A stretch of 24,000 nt of DNA from Aeromonas sp. (GTDB lineage Bacteria > Pseudomonadota > Gammaproteobacteria > Enterobacterales > Aeromonadaceae), in NCBI GenBank assembly GCA_051652185.1, contig JBOFTS010000008.1, forward strand, positions 57,820 to 81,819, written 5' to 3'. The position numbers were made by a program, and so were the translations under genes. Shown here piece by piece: positions 811 to 11,632 of the stretch. Positions within the stretch are counted from its first letter, which is position 1. Each line of letters opens with the position of its first letter. The notes under the pieces were generated by a model. That model saw only the letters and a program-made list of their open reading frames with translations. It had not been told where the DNA came from and made no database searches.

Positions 811-893
811 TCATGTGATGACAGATAACGATAGAGCAACACTGCGAATCCCCTTCGTCACTGTTTATAACATCATCATCGTTATCAAGAATG

Positions 894-920
894 GTCCCTG
901 CTATATAGCGGGGACTTTTT
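894..920 (+). terminator. Rho-independent terminator of ygiW
   Basis: Stem gtccctgct (894-902), loop atat, stem agcggggac (907-915) with one G-U pair, then ttttt (916-920). Confidence 0.75.
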
Positions 921-1093
921 GCATTGAAAATTAATTAAATCCTATGGTCAGTCAGTATTAATTCACTTATCTATAACACCAACAAATTAGCGTAAAAATG
1001 TGCTAACTATTCATTTATAGGCGTGTAACAGTTAGCTAAACTGTGCAAAACACGATCGCAAGCCAACTATTACACGTCTATTTAAATTACTTC

Positions 1094-2836
1094 CTATGAT
1101 CCCTTTAGGTAATTTAGTTCATCTTTATATGATATTGTTGGTTCATATAGCTGGTGGTATCCCTTACCTACAGCCCCTCTAAATTGAATCAAATTAGGCT
1201 TATTATTACCAATGGATAGAATGTGATCTATTGCGATTCCCGGGTATGGATCAATATACACAATATCTTTAATTCCTAATTGATAGGCTTTTTTAGCACA
1301 CAACTCACAAGGGCTAGCTGTAGTAAATAGCTTACCTCCTTCAATACCTGCAGTACCATATTTTGCTAACTGCAGAAAAGCATTTTCTTCAGCATGAAGC
1401 GATCTGGTGTGTACTTGATTACCAGACTTATCTATATTATTCTTAATATCTTTAAAACAGTATGATAAATTTTTACCCTGAGTTCCTTCTTGACCTGATA
1501 TTTTTATTAACTCACCTTTAGCCGCCGTTCTAAACGCTTTATTATTCCGCTCATAAATACTATAAGTAATTTCATCAAAGTCATCAACTAATCCATTTAA
1601 CGACCTCAAATTACATGGCACTTGCCCTTTTGCTACATCATTCCAACCAACAGACTTTATAGAATAATGTTCATCAGTAACAACTGCACCAACTTGGCGA
1701 GAAACACAACCTGAGTTAACTTTTGCTGTATAAGCAATCTGCATAACACGTTCAAGGTTTGTTGGAGATATTATTCCTGGATGTTTTATTAATGCTAAAT
1801 ACCAAGCTAGTTGCGCTTTTAATACATTATTGTTATCAGGTTCATTCCTAGGATTGAATATATGAATATCAGATATCTCAATGCACCTTTTAACATTTTG
1901 ACTGATAAAATCGCCATCTTCAACTTGAGTTTTACCTGATTCTTTTTGTTCGAGTTCATCAAACTCATCTACTGTATATTTATACTCATTTTGTAAATAT
2001 GCCTTACGATCTTCATTTGGAGCATTTATTGACATTAAATAAAATGCTGAATAACGATCTTTAAAGAACTTTACTTCAAAAGGATTTCGAATTGCATCAA
2101 TTACAATAAAGGCTCCACCAGACTTTATTTGCCTAATATACTTTATACATTTATTTATTGTTTCAGGCAAATGAAATACTGACTCCGGTTTGAACGGTTC
2201 GGTATTAAAAGATGATTGAACACATCCTGTTCTACGAATAGAGTTTCCTGCTGCTTGGTAAAGTTTTATATACAGTTTATTATGGAGCGCCCCTAATTCT
2301 TTTTTAAAATCTCTGGTGAATTTCTTGATCAATTTCATATATGAGAAAAATTTTGTTTTTTCTTGATCAGTCAACTCGACGTTACCAGTATGATTTAATA
2401 TTTTATCCGATATTGATTTTAAATAACCTTTTTTCGTAAAGCTAGAATTGAAGCTGCCTTTATTTATTACGTTGTCTATTTTTTCTTTACTAACGTCACA
2501 GGATTGATTTTGTATAAAATTAGATAATTGAGTATCAGAGAGCGTTAATATGTATGCCGAGATTAGATCACTAACCTTAATTGAAATGAAAGGGCTATAA
2601 TTTTCAACAATGTAATTCGATGCAACCTTGTATCTCTTTGAGTCTAAATTAGAAAAAAACAGTTCACTCCCGAGCTTCACATCTTCAACTTGTGGAAAAT
2701 TAGCTGTTTCATTTTCTAGAATGTTTGCTGCTGTAGTACAACCTGAACCTGTTCTTCCGGTCAACCCTATAACAACAAATTTACTGCGCTCATGAAACAG
2801 ACTAGAAATCATTGCATTGTTTTTTGTTTTAGACAA
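1094..2836 (-). CDS. avcD: AvcD-like / 'dCTP deaminase'-type anti-phage protein: P-loop (kinase-like) N-terminal domain fused to a zinc dCMP/dCTP deaminase domain
   Basis: 580-aa ORF. The start is TTG at 2836 with GGAG 7 nt upstream; the first ATG is at 2812. The N-terminus has the Walker-A-like GLTGRTGSGCTT (aa 24-35) and the kinase-like FIVIDAIRNPFE (aa 243-254). The C-terminus has the cytidine/dCMP deaminase zinc signature HAEENA (aa 481-486, nt 1379-1396) and PCELC (aa 509-513, nt 1298-1312). The gene is strongly AT-rich relative to its flanks. Confidence 0.75.
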   Translation of the reverse strand: MSKTKNNAMISSLFHERSKFVVIGLTGRTGSGCTTAANILENETANFPQVEDVKLGSELFFSNLDSKRYKVASNYIVENYSPFISIKVSDLISAYILTLSDTQLSNFIQNQSCDVSKEKIDNVINKGSFNSSFTKKGYLKSISDKILNHTGNVELTDQEKTKFFSYMKLIKKFTRDFKKELGALHNKLYIKLYQAAGNSIRRTGCVQSSFNTEPFKPESVFHLPETINKCIKYIRQIKSGGAFIVIDAIRNPFEVKFFKDRYSAFYLMSINAPNEDRKAYLQNEYKYTVDEFDELEQKESGKTQVEDGDFISQNVKRCIEISDIHIFNPRNEPDNNNVLKAQLAWYLALIKHPGIISPTNLERVMQIAYTAKVNSGCVSRQVGAVVTDEHYSIKSVGWNDVAKGQVPCNLRSLNGLVDDFDEITYSIYERNNKAFRTAAKGELIKISGQEGTQGKNLSYCFKDIKNNIDKSGNQVHTRSLHAEENAFLQLAKYGTAGIEGGKLFTTASPCELCAKKAYQLGIKDIVYIDPYPGIAIDHILSIGNNKPNLIQFRGAVGKGYHQLYEPTISYKDELNYLKGS

Positions 2837-3071
2837 TTGTTAACTCCATAAATATGTAAATACTTGGACTCATAATAGCAATGAGATGAAAAACGGTACT
2901 AATCCAATAGCAGAGCCTTCTGTATAACTCCGCACCGTCACAAAATAATTTATTTCAATATCATAACATTATCAGCCACTGTTGAGTATCTGAACGTGTT
3001 CGTTTGACCACCGCCTTTCGCAACACCATGTTGGATGCTACGACAATCCCCCTACTGAAATATGCCTCTCG

Positions 3072-3098
3072 TGATACTCCTGATACTCTTGATACACC
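3072..3098. repeat. 3 x 9-bp tandem repeat TGATACTCC / TGATACTCT / TGATACACC
   Basis: Read directly at 3072-3080, 3081-3089 and 3090-3098. It is followed at once by the inverted repeat ccgaatt (3098-3104) / aattcgg (3120-3126). Confidence 0.8.
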
Positions 3099-3136
3099 CG
3101 AATTCAACTCACAAGTATCAATTCGGTGACGCCTAA

Positions 3137-3826
3137 TTAGTCCCCGTACAGTTTGATCTCTAATACATTGGCAATGGCGCTGCCATTCCAGTGGTACTCC
3201 AGATGCTGGGATTGGTTAATTTTGGTCACTAGGCAGGGGCGATAGAGCACATAGCAGTTATGGCTGCTGTGGCGCACCGAACGGTAATGGATACCGTCCA
3301 TCCCTTTAGTTTTCTGCTCTTGGGCGAAAGCTTGGGAGTGGCCATAGCTGGTTGCGTGATAAAGCGGGGTTGAAAGAAATTCGGTGCTAGTAATATCCAC
3401 CAGATTGGCGCTGAACTCGGTATACAGCACCCGCATTTGTACTTTTTGCGCAGGTTCGTTGGTATAGCCAAACATCCGTTCTTGGTGATAAACCGTCTCT
3501 TTGATGGCGGTATCAAGCAGAGGGGCACAGTAATAACCGCCAAAATCACCAGTGGTGAAGCGGGCTCCATCTGGATTGATATGGGTGAACGCCGCCATCA
3601 CATAGCTGCTGCCATTTAGCCCCACCAGCCAATCTTCTTTTGGTACCCGCATCAGATCACCTGCGGCTTCATTCAACCGTTCATTGGTCAGCGCCTCGAT
3701 AGCCCAGATGGCTTCCAGTTCATCTGCATTGGCCACATCTTCATAGAGATCGATAGTGGGATAGCGGCTTGGGATGATCCGATAGGCTTGCCCTGCCTTT
3801 AGTTCAATCAGCGGTGACGCTTGCAT
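3137..3826 (-). CDS. RES-domain toxin (NAD+-targeting RES family) of an Xre-RES type II TA pair
   Basis: The ATG at 3824-3826 overlaps the upstream antitoxin stop (3826-3828) as ATGA; an alternative in-frame ATG lies at 3847. The N-terminal ...AYRIIPSRYPTIDLYEDVA... and C-terminal ...GIHYRSVRHSSHNCYVLYRP segments are typical of RES proteins partnered with DUF2384 antitoxins. Confidence 0.8.
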   Translation of the reverse strand: MQASPLIELKAGQAYRIIPSRYPTIDLYEDVANADELEAIWAIEALTNERLNEAAGDLMRVPKEDWLVGLNGSSYVMAAFTHINPDGARFTTGDFGGYYCAPLLDTAIKETVYHQERMFGYTNEPAQKVQMRVLYTEFSANLVDITSTEFLSTPLYHATSYGHSQAFAQEQKTKGMDGIHYRSVRHSSHNCYVLYRPCLVTKINQSQHLEYHWNGSAIANVLEIKLYGD

Positions 3827-4230
3827 CAGGCCATCCCCCCACGCCAAGCATGCAAGCGGGTGGCCACTTCATACAAATCAGCCACATGACCCGCATTCAT
3901 CACGTCCATTGCGCTACGCCCAGCAAAGAAGGGATGGCTGTTAGGTTTGCGCACCCACCCGTAGATGCTGTCATCGGCACTGAACAGTATTCTCAAACAC
4001 TTATGGATGTTGAGGATGTAGCTCATCCGCTCTTGCATATCCACGGTCAGACGGATCCCACCGCTTGATTCCTTATATTTGTTCAATGTTGAACGTGATG
4101 AGATGCCAAGCAGTTTAAGCTGTTCATCTGTATTGCAGTGCCACTTATCTAAGATGCGAAATACCACAGGCAGTGCCTTGCTGGGATCAATGGCGTTATT
4201 TTTTAGGGATTTCTGTACTTTATTGGCCAT
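3826..4230 (-). CDS. Xre/MbcA/ParS-like antitoxin (HTH plus DUF2384 toxin-binding domain)
   Basis: ATG at 4228-4230 is preceded by AGGAGG (complement of 4234-4239). The sequence MANKVQKS...DEQLKLLGISSRSTLNKYKES... is HTH-like. The C-terminus ...HPFFAGRSAMDVMNAGHVADLYEVATRLHAWRGG fits the DUF2384 pattern. The ORF-track extension to 4320 has no SD. Confidence 0.8.
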   Translation of the reverse strand: MANKVQKSLKNNAIDPSKALPVVFRILDKWHCNTDEQLKLLGISSRSTLNKYKESSGGIRLTVDMQERMSYILNIHKCLRILFSADDSIYGWVRKPNSHPFFAGRSAMDVMNAGHVADLYEVATRLHAWRGGMA

Positions 4231-4290
4231 ACATCCTCCTGATGTAGTTAGCGTAAGATAGTCGTATCGCTCAAGAAGGTTCACTTTAAG

Positions 4291-4360
4291 TATGTACACC
4301 CATGTGTAAGGCATGCACAAGGCATGTATATATATATATATTTTACCTAGTCATGTACAA
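4291..4360 (-). promoter_or_regulatory. Putative promoter/operator region of the Xre-RES operon
   Basis: The minus strand reads TTGTAC (4355-4360), then a 16-17 nt spacer, then TATATA inside the TA tract. Downstream are the direct repeats CATGCCTT x2 (plus strand aaggcatg at 4308-4315 and 4319-4326, 11-bp period). TGTACAT palindrome cores sit at about 4292-4298 and 4353-4359. Confidence 0.4.
4327..4340. repeat. (TA)7 dinucleotide tract
   Basis: tatatatatatata read directly at 4327-4340, followed by tttt. Confidence 0.9.
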
Positions 4361-4430
4361 ACTTGAACAAGTATAAGCCTAGATGAGCATAGATGGGTCT
4401 ATTCCTGCGGTGGGCTTAGCTAAAACAAAC

Positions 4431-4455
4431 AAAACCCGGCGCGAGGCCGGGTTTT
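4431..4455. terminator. Bidirectional rho-independent terminator (serves lacZ on the minus strand)
   Basis: aaaacccggc (4431-4440), loop gcgag, gccgggtttt (4446-4455). On the minus strand a T-rich run (ttttgtttgtttt) follows. It lies 55 nt downstream of the lacZ stop. Confidence 0.8.
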
Positions 4456-4509
4456 GTAGAGCGTCCTTATGGGCTGAGGCACCCATGGGATTAGGCTAAG
4501 CCCTGCGGG

Positions 4510-8935
<4,426 letters not shown>

Positions 8936-9065
8936 TACTTGTAACTAGCTCGTAACTAGCTTGTGATTCACAAGCTAAATGTTTGGGCGAACCAAGCGAT
9001 TCCCCCCACTTTTCACGCAGATTACGCCAGCCAAATGGGCTTTACTGTGACCCAGCAAACAGTTG

Positions 9066-9081
9066 GTGTAACCGGTATCAC
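9066..9081. promoter_or_regulatory. GalR/LacI-type operator upstream of lacY-lacZ
   Basis: GTGTAACCGGTATCAC is 12/16 self-complementary. It fits the GalR operator pattern GTGnAAnCGnTTnCAC as recalled. It lies about 130 bp upstream of the lacY start and 40 bp downstream of the CRP-like site. Confidence 0.6.
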
Positions 9082-9102
9082 CGCTGGACGGTTTTAGGTA
9101 TT

Positions 9103-9124
9103 TTTTGTGACCGCCATCACGGAA
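9103..9124. promoter_or_regulatory. CRP (cAMP receptor protein) binding site candidate for the lacYZ promoter
   Basis: tttTGTGAccgccaTCACGgaa has TGTGA-N6-TCAC at the canonical spacing (TGTGA 9106-9110, TCAC 9117-9120). Confidence 0.55.
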
Positions 9125-9363
9125 GTGGGGGTAGTCAGTGGGGACGAGCCTTCAGTAATTGCCTTGCAATGCTCTTGTCATTGCCTTGCAATGGCTCAGC
9201 ACCAAGAAAACGGTACCATCCAGAGCCCATGCGGGTTACCAAGGTGGGATGCGAGTGGAAATAGAAGAGAAAAATGTAAAAGAGAAGCGCGAAAGAAGTG
9301 GCGAATGTAAGCATTCCACACGAGCACCTCTTGCAAGCACTTTTCGCACGTACGCTGCTGCGC

Positions 9364-9397
9364 AAAAAAAATGGAGGGGAATTTGCTCCCCCTCCAT
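9364..9397 (-). terminator. Rho-independent terminator downstream of the alpha-galactosidase gene
   Basis: Plus strand: aaaaaaa(a) at 9364-9371, then the hairpin atggagggg (9371-9379) / cccctccat (9389-9397). On the minus strand this is a hairpin followed by a T8 run, about 110 nt after the stop at 9509. Confidence 0.75.
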
Positions 9398-9508
9398 GTG
9401 AGTCACCCCCGTCAATGGCGATGACAGGTCACAACCCTTTATCGCTACCGGACGTGACTGCCGCCCTTATCACTGGGCGATATGACAAGGTGATATAGCA
9501 AGGCGATC

Positions 9509-11632
9509 TTACAGGGCCGTGAACTCAATCAAGATGGCGGTGCTAGGATCGAGCACCGCCATCGCTAGGCCTACCTCTGTTAGCCACTCACCGGTTAGCT
9601 CGATCCCTTCATGGGTCCAAGCGGGCTGTTGATTGACTAAGCCCTGATGGAAATTGTCTGCCTGTGCCACCAATTTCACTCGGTAATGGCGATCTGCCGC
9701 TAAACCTGGCACCCGTAATACTCCGCCAAGGGCGTAGGTTTGCATATCGACCAATGCCACCATCACCAGCGCGGCGGATTGATCGGCAGCGACCACCCCG
9801 TGGATCATCTGGGCGGTATCATCTGCAGCAATGCGATAAGTGGTACCGGTGTGCAACAATTCCCGATATTGCTTATGCAACGCAATGTATTTGGCAAAGC
9901 CGGCTTTCTCTTGGACGGACTCTTTCACAGGATCAAGCTCAATGCCCATGTGACCAAACAGGGCCGTGATACCGCGAAAATGAATATCTGACACCCGTCG
10001 AGTGGCGTGGCAGTGACGCGCACCGATGTGTGAGCCCATCACCTCTGGTGGGAAGAAGTAGCTAAAGCCACGCTGGATCACTTGCCGATTAAGGGCGTCG
10101 TTGTTATCTGATGGCCAGAATCGTTGCACTCGCTTGAGCACTTCAAAATCGACTCGACCACCACCACTGGCACAAGATTCAATTTCTACCTGAGGATGTT
10201 TGGCTTTGAGCTCATCAATCAGCCGATAAAAGTTGTGCACCTGCGCATGTTGGGCCGCGCGGCCCTCATGGCCTGGCTGCACCACTTCGCGGTTCATATC
10301 CCACTTCAGGTAGCTGATGGGGTAGCGGCTAAGCAGCGCATCGAGTCGCTCTGACAAATAGGCAAATACCGCCGGATTTTGCAGATCGAGCACATATTGA
10401 TTGCGCCCCATGGGCTGCTCATAGGCGGGCATGGCCAGCAACCAATCAGGATGTTGGCGATAGAGATCCGAGTCTTTGTTGATCATTTCAGGCTCAACCC
10501 AGATCCCAAATTCCATCCCTTTGGCCAGCACATGGTTGATCACCGGATCCAGCCCTTCTGGGTATTTTTGCTCATCTAAATACCAGTCGCCGAGGGCAGC
10601 CTTGTCATTGTTGCGGCCCTTAAACCAACCATCATCGATGATAAAACGCTCAACCCCCATGCTGGCGGCTTCCGTGGCCATTTGCATGATGTACGCCGGA
10701 TCGTGATCAAAGTAGATCCCCTCCCACGTATTTAGGTGCACAGGACGCATCCGTTGACCCGATTGGCGCACCGGGAGCTGCAAAATCTCATCTCTGACAA
10801 AGCGATGGAACTGCTGGCTCATCAGGTTCAGGCCTTCACCACTGTAAGTGGCATAGAGCCACGGGGTGCTCAGTTGCTCCCCCTGCGCCAAACAGATTTC
10901 GCCGGGATGATAAATCGCCTCGGCCTGCAAGAAGCGGCGACCATCGGCTTTTACGTCAACCCGCATCCGGTGGTTACCACTCCACGCCAAATGGGCGCCC
11001 CACACTTCCCCTTGCTGCTCACTAAAGCCGTTGCTGCCAACCACTAATGCCGGAAAATGCTCATGGGAGGTGCGACCCCGGCGATTTTCTTGCTGATAGC
11101 CGCCGTGCTGCAAGGTGTGGCGATGCTGCTGAAACTCATTCACCCAGCGACCATAAAAAGAGAGGCAGTCATTGGCGCGGGCAGGCAGTGGCAAGGTGGT
11201 GGCGAGGCGATTGACGGTAAATGGCTCGGCGCCATCGTTGCGCAAAGCATGGCGAATGCTTAGCACATCACTGTCTGGGTCTAGCCGTAACTCACTGGTT
11301 AACGTCAGGTGAGCGGCCTTATCTTGGCTTATCAACCGCAAGCTATGGGGCTGTGGGTCAATTTCGATCAGGCTAAACACCGGTGACCAATCTTGGCCAT
11401 TGCGGTGCCCTTCGAGCGCCGGTGAGCTAAACACCCCACGCCCCGCATCCGGGAACAGGGTCAGTGGCACGTCCACATCTAACCGGCCATAAGGCACGGC
11501 CCGCACCAATGCTTGGCTTTGAGTGGGCTGAGGTTGGTGTAACTTTTTACCCCAGTGGATCAGCTCTGCCCCTTGCTCAAGGTTGATCAACAGATCGGTG
11601 TGCTTGCCGCTCAGTGTGATGATGTGCTTCAT
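9509..11632 (-). CDS. Alpha-galactosidase, glycoside hydrolase family 36 (RafA/AgaA-like)
   Basis: 707 aa, the same size class as E. coli RafA. GH36 hallmarks are present: ERFIIDDGWF, ISYLKWDMNR (nucleophile Asp region), EIESCASGGGRVDFEVL, WPSDNNDA. Confidence 0.88.
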   Translation of the reverse strand: MKHIITLSGKHTDLLINLEQGAELIHWGKKLHQPQPTQSQALVRAVPYGRLDVDVPLTLFPDAGRGVFSSPALEGHRNGQDWSPVFSLIEIDPQPHSLRLISQDKAAHLTLTSELRLDPDSDVLSIRHALRNDGAEPFTVNRLATTLPLPARANDCLSFYGRWVNEFQQHRHTLQHGGYQQENRRGRTSHEHFPALVVGSNGFSEQQGEVWGAHLAWSGNHRMRVDVKADGRRFLQAEAIYHPGEICLAQGEQLSTPWLYATYSGEGLNLMSQQFHRFVRDEILQLPVRQSGQRMRPVHLNTWEGIYFDHDPAYIMQMATEAASMGVERFIIDDGWFKGRNNDKAALGDWYLDEQKYPEGLDPVINHVLAKGMEFGIWVEPEMINKDSDLYRQHPDWLLAMPAYEQPMGRNQYVLDLQNPAVFAYLSERLDALLSRYPISYLKWDMNREVVQPGHEGRAAQHAQVHNFYRLIDELKAKHPQVEIESCASGGGRVDFEVLKRVQRFWPSDNNDALNRQVIQRGFSYFFPPEVMGSHIGARHCHATRRVSDIHFRGITALFGHMGIELDPVKESVQEKAGFAKYIALHKQYRELLHTGTTYRIAADDTAQMIHGVVAADQSAALVMVALVDMQTYALGGVLRVPGLAADRHYRVKLVAQADNFHQGLVNQQPAWTHEGIELTGEWLTEVGLAMAVLDPSTAILIEFTAL

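Follow-up and report, generated by a model that had tools for sequence, protein, structure and literature searches.

A predicted AW1.7-type anti-phage dCTP deaminase gene in a variable, AT-rich islet of an Aeromonas genome

The window analysed here is a 24,000-nt stretch of DNA from a metagenome-assembled genome (MAG) of Aeromonas sp. (NCBI GenBank assembly GCA_051652185.1, contig JBOFTS010000008.1, positions 57,820 to 81,819 of the forward strand). Its main subject is a gene on the minus strand at window positions 1094..2836, which encodes an intact, two-domain protein of 580 amino acids (aa) that belongs to the anti-phage dCTP deaminase family, conserves the residues that are essential in characterised homologues and lies in an AT-rich islet next to a toxin-antitoxin (TA) gene pair of the RES/Xre type. 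The open reading frame (ORF) had been picked out in a first-pass annotation; it is real and uninterrupted, and appears in the ORF list as well as in matches to the NCBIfam model NF041025 and the PADLOC dCTPase model. Translation begins at a TTG codon (window 2834-2836) with a GGAG Shine-Dalgarno sequence 7 nt 5' of it, in a start context, TATGGAGTTAACAATTG, that recurs in L001 and L081, the two closest relatives within a collection of related loci numbered L001-L091. The arrangement of GGAG followed by TTG was also seen to be conserved in L001, L002, L081 and L085, all among the closest deaminase relatives. An alternative ATG start at codon 9 would give a product of 572 aa. Use of TTG might serve to hold down the translation of a potentially toxic deaminase.

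The gene stands out by its composition, with a G+C content of 33% overall and 28-36% across 300-nt windows, against 48-54% for the RES/Xre pair, 56-60% for lacZ, 43-48% for ygiW and ~55-60% for the host. The first-pass annotation had seen this contrast with the neighbouring genes correctly, although the 25-27% G+C that it quoted was too low.

The polypeptide divides into an N-terminal domain with a derived P-loop and a putatively kinase-like character (aa 1-355, window 1772..2836, minus strand), which in the AlphaFold2 (AF2) model carries a large helical insert at aa ~88-237, and a C-terminal zinc-dependent dCMP/dCTP deaminase domain (aa 356-580, window 1097..1771, minus strand), recognised by Pfam PF00383 and by sequence and Foldseek matches. 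On translation, four motifs reported in the first-pass annotation fall exactly where it had placed them: the P-loop-like motif GRTGSGCTT (aa 27-35, window 2732-2758), the segment FIVIDAIRNPFE (aa 243-254, window 2075-2110), the catalytic HAE (aa 481-483, window 1388-1396), in which H481 is the zinc ligand and E483 the proton shuttle, and the zinc-binding PCELC (aa 509-513, window 1298-1312), with C510 and C513, all on the minus strand. Conservation was read from a clade alignment of 23 sequences, consisting of the window protein and 22 homologues at 57-86% identity. In this alignment the P-loop-like motif, HAE and PCELC are invariant, and so are V245, D247, A248, I249, R250 and N251 within FIVIDAIRNPFE, where a beta-strand (residues 242-247 in the AF2 model) ends at Asp247 in a Walker-B-like hhhhD pattern and is followed by an AIRN motif. 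The P-loop-like motif itself follows the pattern GxxxxG-C-T (G27-RTGS-G32-C33-T34) and departs from the canonical Walker A sequence GxxxxGK[ST], with Cys33 replacing the catalytic Lys, a substitution that is invariant across the clade. Because a Cys occupies the Walker A Lys position, we prefer the label 'P-loop-like' over 'kinase' for this domain, and treat its kinase status as putative only.

Searches with curated models gave a consistent picture of the family to which the protein belongs. NF041025, the equivalog model for anti-phage dCTP deaminases, matches aa 20-571 over its full profile (positions 1-437 of 437) with 444.4 bits against a cutoff of 400 bits; the PADLOC dCTPase model matches the 580-aa protein with an E-value of 1.8e-146; and Pfam PF00383 (dCMP_cyt_deam_1, the zinc-binding region of dCMP/cytidine deaminases) matches aa 360-527 with an E-value of 1e-14. 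An identical protein (P0001) is already present in NCBI as 'MAG: anti-phage dCTP deaminase [Aeromonas sp.]'. A large protein database yielded 4231 homologues at E<=1e-10, the best 120 of which are mostly 572-582 aa long. The window protein aligns end to end with the 22 homologues of the clade alignment and with the characterised enzyme of Escherichia coli AW1.7, and its length fits the range of ~530-620 aa expected of the two-domain polypeptides of the family. Phage records held no full-length homologue, their matches being confined to the phage dCMP deaminase domain, and no DNA near-identical to the gene was found in the E. coli genomes searched.

When complete E. coli genomes were searched at the DNA level, the gene of strain AW1.7 (WP_045268677.1, 576 aa) did come up; aligned over 574 aa, its product and the window protein are 56% identical and 75% similar along their full length. 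This enzyme, named 'dCTP deaminase' by those who described it (Tal et al. 2022, bioRxiv 10.1101/2021.04.26.441389), removes dCTP upon infection and protects against several phages, and both the G29A/C30A substitutions in its 'kinase' nucleotide-binding motif and the C370A/C401A substitutions abolish defence (bioRxiv 10.1101/2021.04.26.441389). The residues concerned, G29, C30, C370 and C401, correspond to G32, C33, C377 and C408 of the window protein, and all four are invariant in the clade alignment. For the Vibrio cholerae member of the family, known as AvcD or DcdV (Hsueh et al. 2022), mutation showed E384 and C411/C414 to be essential (bioRxiv 10.1101/2021.03.31.437871); these residues correspond to E483, C510 and C513, again all invariant. 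The curated-model matches, the similarity to the AW1.7 enzyme and the conserved residues together bear out the core of the first-pass annotation, which had proposed a single-gene nucleotide-depletion defence enzyme, a proposal on which PF00383, the PADLOC dCTPase model and NF041025 all agree. Judged from sequence comparison, the product of the gene is very probably an anti-phage dCTP deaminase of the kind known from E. coli AW1.7. It is an already annotated, typical member of a described and well-populated defence family, and so an ordinary example of it; the locus adds one more dCTP-depleting defence gene, in Aeromonas, and its value lies mainly in correct annotation.

The homology of the C-terminal domain to dCMP deaminases would also fit a housekeeping enzyme (ComEB/Dcd-like) that serves dTTP synthesis and carries an accessory domain. 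We consider this scarcely credible, since the housekeeping ComEB equivalog model (TIGR02571) reaches 39.4 bits against a cutoff of 219 bits and covers aa 477-531 only, and since the protein has 580 aa, with a 355-aa N-terminal domain that is required in homologues, against ~150 aa for the stand-alone enzyme. The low G+C content in a host of ~55-60%, the lack of the gene at the corresponding position of a related genome (L086) and the sporadic distribution of anti-phage dCTP deaminases (bioRxiv 10.1101/2021.04.26.441389) point the same way, and the distinction from ComEB-type enzymes that the first-pass annotation had drawn thus holds.

The same annotation had likened the fused layout to that of AvcD and the 'dCTP deaminase' defence genes, and had asked whether the gene, which it took to be longer than AvcD, might be a divergent subtype with a long insertion of its own at aa 400-480. 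The family is indeed the same, and NF041025 also labels the AvcD-type homologue (532 aa) encoded on p58 of enterotoxigenic E. coli (ETEC) H10407, the strain whose homologue was tested by Hsueh et al. That protein, however, is only 29% identical to the window protein over 375 aa, and its N-terminal region is barely alignable (not significant). It is thus AvcD that represents the more distant branch, and the window gene has the mainstream AW1.7-type form, identical at 56% of positions over the full length, rather than that of a divergent subtype. Nor is the segment at aa ~400-480, from VGWND to HAE, confined to this gene: all 23 aligned members have it, with C408, Y459-C460-F461-K462 and H476 invariant, and it aligns with the ETEC AvcD-type protein as well. 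In T4 Cd, ~50 extra aa lie between C49 and HAE, and the window VPC408 aligns with T4 C49. By the clade alignment, both the length of ~575-580 aa and this segment are normal for a large clade.

Compared with the AW1.7 enzyme, then, the window protein has the same two-domain layout, the same GSGCTT variant of the P-loop with Cys at the Lys position, the equivalents of C370 and C401, HAE, PCELC and the aa 400-480 segment, and both genes are AT-rich and sit in a mobile or defence context. The two differ in that the window gene belongs to an Aeromonas MAG and occupies an islet between ygiW and lacZ rather than a tRNA-Phe integrase island, and in that it has non-homologous 5' and 3' flanks and a TTG start. 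With V. cholerae AvcD/DcdV the window protein has in common the combination of P-loop-like and dCMP-deaminase domains and the conserved catalytic E and CxxC, and presumably also the chemistry and the trigger, transcription shutoff; it differs in length (580 aa, against 532 aa for AvcD).

Structure prediction supports the assignment of the two domains unequally. The AF2 model, built from the 23-sequence alignment, has a mean predicted local distance difference test score (pLDDT) of 74 and a predicted template modelling score (pTM) of 0.70, and shows two domains, of which the N-terminal one is better defined, with pLDDT values of 80-95 over most of its length. For the C-terminal domain, sequence matches include T4 Cd (1vq2) and the cyanophage S-TIM5 enzyme (4p9c), and Foldseek matches of the model to the dCMP deaminases 4p9e, 2w4l, 1vq2 and 7fh4 have E-values of 2.6e-6 to 1e-4, covering the enzymes of cyanophage S-TIM5, human (DCTD), T4 (Cd), S. 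mutans and PBCV-1 (bi-DCD). T4 Cd, S-TIM5, human DCTD and PBCV-1 bi-DCD are like the window protein in their deaminase fold and catalytic motifs, and unlike it in being stand-alone metabolic enzymes of 130-190 aa that lack the 355-aa N-terminal domain. These dCMP deaminases are under allosteric control by dCTP/dTTP and are not triggered by infection. Weak Pfam matches to MafB19-deam (19.9 bits), Bd3614-deam and APOBEC_N raise the question of whether the protein could rather be a polynucleotide-editing or toxin deaminase of the MafB19/DddA kind, which would mutate DNA or RNA instead of free nucleotides. None of these matches reaches its cutoff, and all of them coincide with the generic HAE/PCxxC core; by structure as well as by sequence the protein matches dCMP deaminases best, and it carries no secretion or toxin-delivery domain. 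Moreover, the AW1.7 enzyme was found by Tal et al. not to edit the genome or transcriptome (bioRxiv 10.1101/2021.04.26.441389, Figure S2 legend). An editing activity is therefore extremely improbable.

For the N-terminal domain the comparisons are less decisive. Within the full model its match to the UMP/CMP kinase 5ukd has a Foldseek E-value of 8e-3 (weak); for the isolated domain the best Foldseek match is to the dephospho-CoA kinase 4zo4 (E 0.27, not significant), and adenylate, gluconate and APS kinases give target TM-scores of 0.35-0.48. At the sequence level, Pfam AAA_18 appears below threshold in 18 of the 23 clade members (best E 0.0022), and a PDB profile search matched a dephospho-CoA kinase with an E-value of 0.7. 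A search of the PDB revealed no solved structure that contains the N-terminal domain of the family. Taken together, these comparisons of sequence and model suggest a weak but consistent trend towards P-loop kinases in which no single match is significant. The P-loop/kinase-like domain of the first-pass annotation is accordingly borne out as far as the motif goes, while its fold and profile similarity to kinases remains weak and below threshold.

What such a protein would do can be sketched from its characterised homologues, in which a loss of host transcription induced by phage leads to activation, deamination of dCTP/dCMP to dU nucleotides, collapse of the deoxycytidine (dC) nucleotides and failure of phage DNA replication (PMC10511110; bioRxiv 10.1101/2021.03.31.437871; 10.1101/2021.04.26.441389), and in which both domains are required for defence (bioRxiv 10.1101/2021.03.31.437871; 10.1101/2021.04.26.441389). 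By analogy, the enzyme would be held inactive in uninfected cells, and a lytic phage that shuts down host transcription would relieve this restraint. The C-terminal zinc deaminase, with H481, E483, C510 and C513, would then convert dCTP, and probably dCMP, to deoxyuridine nucleotides, and the ensuing collapse of the dC pool would be expected to stall phage DNA replication. The N-terminal domain, with no Lys in its P-loop-like motif, seems more likely to bind a nucleotide or a regulator than to carry out the phosphate transfer of a conventional kinase. The scheme presupposes expression of the Aeromonas orthologue, for which read-through from RES/Xre is a possible route, and a behaviour like that of its homologues.

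Several observations weigh against this interpretation. The kinase-like assignment of the N-terminal domain lacks statistical support. The closest enzyme with a tested function is only 56% identical, so that activity, trigger and phage range are inferred. The gene has no recognisable promoter on the minus strand upstream of it, and its expression is therefore predicted, perhaps by way of RES/Xre read-through. Finally, a partner resembling the AvcI RNA of V. cholerae was not found, so that the published type III TA mode of regulation cannot simply be transferred to this locus.

The last point concerns the DNA around the gene. In V. cholerae, AvcI (also DifV; AvcID system of Hsueh et al. 2022, 2023), which the first-pass annotation had not brought up, is a small RNA (sRNA) of 152-174 nt encoded directly 5' of avcD and in the same orientation (bioRxiv 10.1101/2021.03.31.437871); it binds and inhibits AvcD, and decays once a phage has stopped host transcription (PMC10511110; bioRxiv 10.1101/2021.03.31.437871). 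Its homologues reportedly lack any common sequence, and many of them carry an annotation as small ORFs (bioRxiv 10.1101/2021.03.31.437871). By this precedent, the window locus could be a full type III TA system of the AvcID kind, in which the spacer between the RES and deaminase genes (2837-3136) would encode a locus-specific AvcI-like sRNA that inhibits the deaminase and decays at phage-induced transcription shutoff. In L002, L081, L082 and L085, as in the window, the gene follows a spacer of comparable size (280-380 nt), and the one in the window includes a 48-aa ORF on the same strand as the deaminase (2961-3107, minus strand, from the ORF list), inside which lies a 9-nt tandem repeat at 3068-3095 (minus strand; unit GTATCANGA, 3.1 copies). 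This small ORF ends 124 nt from the deaminase start, in contrast to AvcD-type loci (ETEC p58 and Klebsiella small plasmids), in which a small ORF of 60-61 aa occupies the position of AvcI 12 nt before the deaminase; no such ORF is detectable at that position in the window. The ETEC and Klebsiella AvcD-type loci are themselves only 50% identical at the aa level, too diverged for a test at the DNA level, and only the synteny of their small ORF is conserved. The 9-nt repeat was found in none of the 91 related loci.

Comparison with the close relatives of the window gene argues further against such an RNA. Blastn against L001 and L081, which are 83% identical to the window in the ORF at the DNA level, found similarity confined to window positions 1081/1095-2875, that is, to the ORF, a leader of 39 nt and at most 13 nt past the stop codon. 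The leader (2837..2875, minus strand), which contains the Shine-Dalgarno GGAG, is the only flanking DNA in common with the closest relatives, and the rest of the spacer, as far as the RES stop codon (2876..3136, minus strand), is not conserved; this is where an AvcI-like RNA would be expected, and none is supported there. When the 5' flank was compared with those of seven close loci by blastn (word size 7), by MAFFT and by Smith-Waterman alignment against shuffles, nothing in common was found beyond position -40: positions -40 to -1 gave z-scores of 14-17 against shuffles, and positions -300 to -41 gave z-scores of 0-1.8. Divergence between the closest loci is not saturated, because their four-fold degenerate sites are still 57-65% identical. 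Most clade pairs at 73-88% identity lose their similarity just as abruptly at the edges of the ORF. Across L001-L091, DNA similarity between relatives was likewise seen to end usually no more than ~60 nt from the start and ~15 nt from the stop codon, a pattern that looks like exchange of the bare ORF.

Nor did we obtain a sign of a structured RNA by other means. The spacer folds no better than its shuffled versions (z -0.59), and the -250 to -31 regions of 66 related loci have a mean fold z-score of -0.95, a value that is uninformative. A promoter scan found no sigma-70-like promoter on the minus strand upstream of the deaminase. Rfam, searched both at gathering thresholds and at E<=1, gave as its sole match a sub-threshold rnk leader over the lacZ terminator; the AvcI region of ETEC had no Rfam match either, which indicates that Rfam holds no AvcI model. 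Since the profile of synonymous-codon conservation is flat along the ORF (0.36-0.52 over 32 non-redundant homologues), there is also no sign of an RNA element embedded within the gene. With the protein placed in the AW1.7 clade rather than the AvcD clade, we regard an AvcI-like sRNA in the spacer as unlikely. Some weight, short of an even chance, may be given to the alternative that in the AW1.7-type clade the conserved and exchanged unit is the bare ORF with its leader of ~40 nt, that it has no cis-encoded AvcI-like RNA, and that it relies on another restraint or trigger. Autoinhibition through the Lys-less P-loop domain, acting as a sensor of a nucleotide or of a labile host factor, is one possibility for such a restraint. 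Because the conserved DNA stops at the ORF edges, the published model of AvcI as an RNA antitoxin may not apply to this clade, and if the clade does consist of bare ORFs that have no RNA in cis, the equation of AvcID with a type III TA system would be valid for one branch of the family only.

On the 3' side, an imperfect inverted repeat of 21 bp with a loop of 23 nt (1017..1081, minus strand) forms a long hairpin that starts 13 nt past the deaminase stop codon. The 3' flank has a fold z-score of -4.16, with none of 200 shuffles as stable. This hairpin is not followed by a U-tract, is unique in the window and is not common to the relatives, with which similarity ends at 1081. It may be a hairpin that ends or stabilises the transcript, or the scar of an insertion.

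The deaminase gene and the TA pair together make up a variable islet of 3.5 kb (941..4428) between two terminator-like hairpins found by a terminator scan, that of ygiW (893-916, plus strand) and that of lacZ (4457-4429, minus strand); the first-pass annotation had described just such a small islet between the terminators of core genes, with a TA module beside the deaminase. In L086, a contig of another genome that encodes an identical YgiW protein, 97% DNA identity to the window extends up to position 940, beyond which other cargo follows (7376-11020 of that contig): a secreted-looking protein of 144 aa, a WYL/WCX regulator, a small CxxCxxCC protein and the PADLOC candidate PDC-M09A. From this identity that ends at 940 and the different cargo beyond it, we conclude that the site downstream of ygiW is a variable hotspot for defence cargo, and that the islet in the window spans 941 to ~4428, its left boundary being drawn from L086 alone. 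The spot downstream of ygiW is thereby revealed as one that receives defence cargo, and the AT-rich islet fits the sporadic, horizontally acquired, defence-island setting of the family. Exact-protein look-ups with the RES toxin and LacY, made for an empty-site reference, returned no match, and nothing in the plasmid collection, where a chromosome-sized A. caviae record is also filed, matched the ygiW region of the window. The remaining genes of the window are core genes, namely lacZ, lacY, a melibiase gene, a gene for a LacI-family regulator, galETKM, uppP, argS and hslV.

The TA pair consists of a gene for a RES-domain toxin of a type II RES/Xre system (3137..3847, minus strand; Pfam RES, 104.8 bits, E 6e-30) and one for an Xre/ParS-type antitoxin (3826..4230, minus strand), with matches to Xre-like-HTH (36.6 bits, E 5.6e-9) and to the C-terminal domain Xre_MbcA_ParS_C (33.8 bits, E 3.5e-8). 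All three matches are above their Pfam cutoffs, and the antitoxin also has a weak match to the NCBIfam Xre_ParS_antitoxin model. As listed, the antitoxin ORF reaches 4320; its likely start is the MANKVQ at 4230. The RES and Xre-ParS ORFs (window 3137-4320) were seen to overlap by 22 nt. These two genes lie in the same islet and on the same strand as the deaminase, and nothing resembling a terminator separates the end of the RES gene from the deaminase start, an arrangement that would suit a single three-gene defence system in which, for example, Xre controls the deaminase. However, in none of 89 related deaminase loci did tblastn searches with both proteins detect a homologue of either within 5 kb of the deaminase, the G+C content of the TA pair (48-54%) differs from that of the deaminase (33%), and upstream of the deaminase start only 39 nt resemble the DNA of relatives. 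We therefore hold a joint system to be very improbable; the RES/Xre pair is an independent TA module and not a partner of the deaminase, and the difference in G+C content suggests that the two were acquired separately.

The deaminase family as a whole bears marks of mobility. Among L001-L091 its genes have a G+C content of 0.26-0.45 whatever that of the host, even where the flanks exceed 60%, which is consistent with horizontal spread. Close relatives adjoin a gene for an OLD/AriA/GajA-like ATPase or a PIN-domain gene, are part of a tRNA-Phe integrase island or have a P2-like prophage next to them. In a comparison across four genera (L016, L017, L018 and L087, from Buttiauxella, Erwinia, Pseudocitrobacter and E. 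coli AW1.7), the AW1.7 deaminase gene was 97-99.9% identical together with at least 700 nt upstream and at least 400 nt downstream, and this degree of identity indicates very recent horizontal transfer of the AW1.7 island. A Yersinia copy of the deaminase (88%) has ~215 nt of AT-rich upstream DNA in common with the AW1.7 island, including a promoter-like TTGATT-17-GATAAT. A further homologue, 42% identical and lying where the record has no annotation under the match, was noticed in NZ_AP026896.1, a 4.94-Mb, chromosome-sized record of Aeromonas caviae that is filed among plasmids.

Two minor features were noted at the far end of the islet. The match of Rfam's Pseudomonas rnk leader model (4422-4524, minus strand; 30.8 bits against a gathering threshold of 55, E 0.018), which is below threshold, lies over the lacZ terminator, whose hairpin has probably given rise to it by chance. 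An inverted repeat of 27 nt, 81% complementary, has its arms at 4072-4098 and 4351-4377, 252 nt apart, the first inside the Xre antitoxin gene and the second upstream of it.

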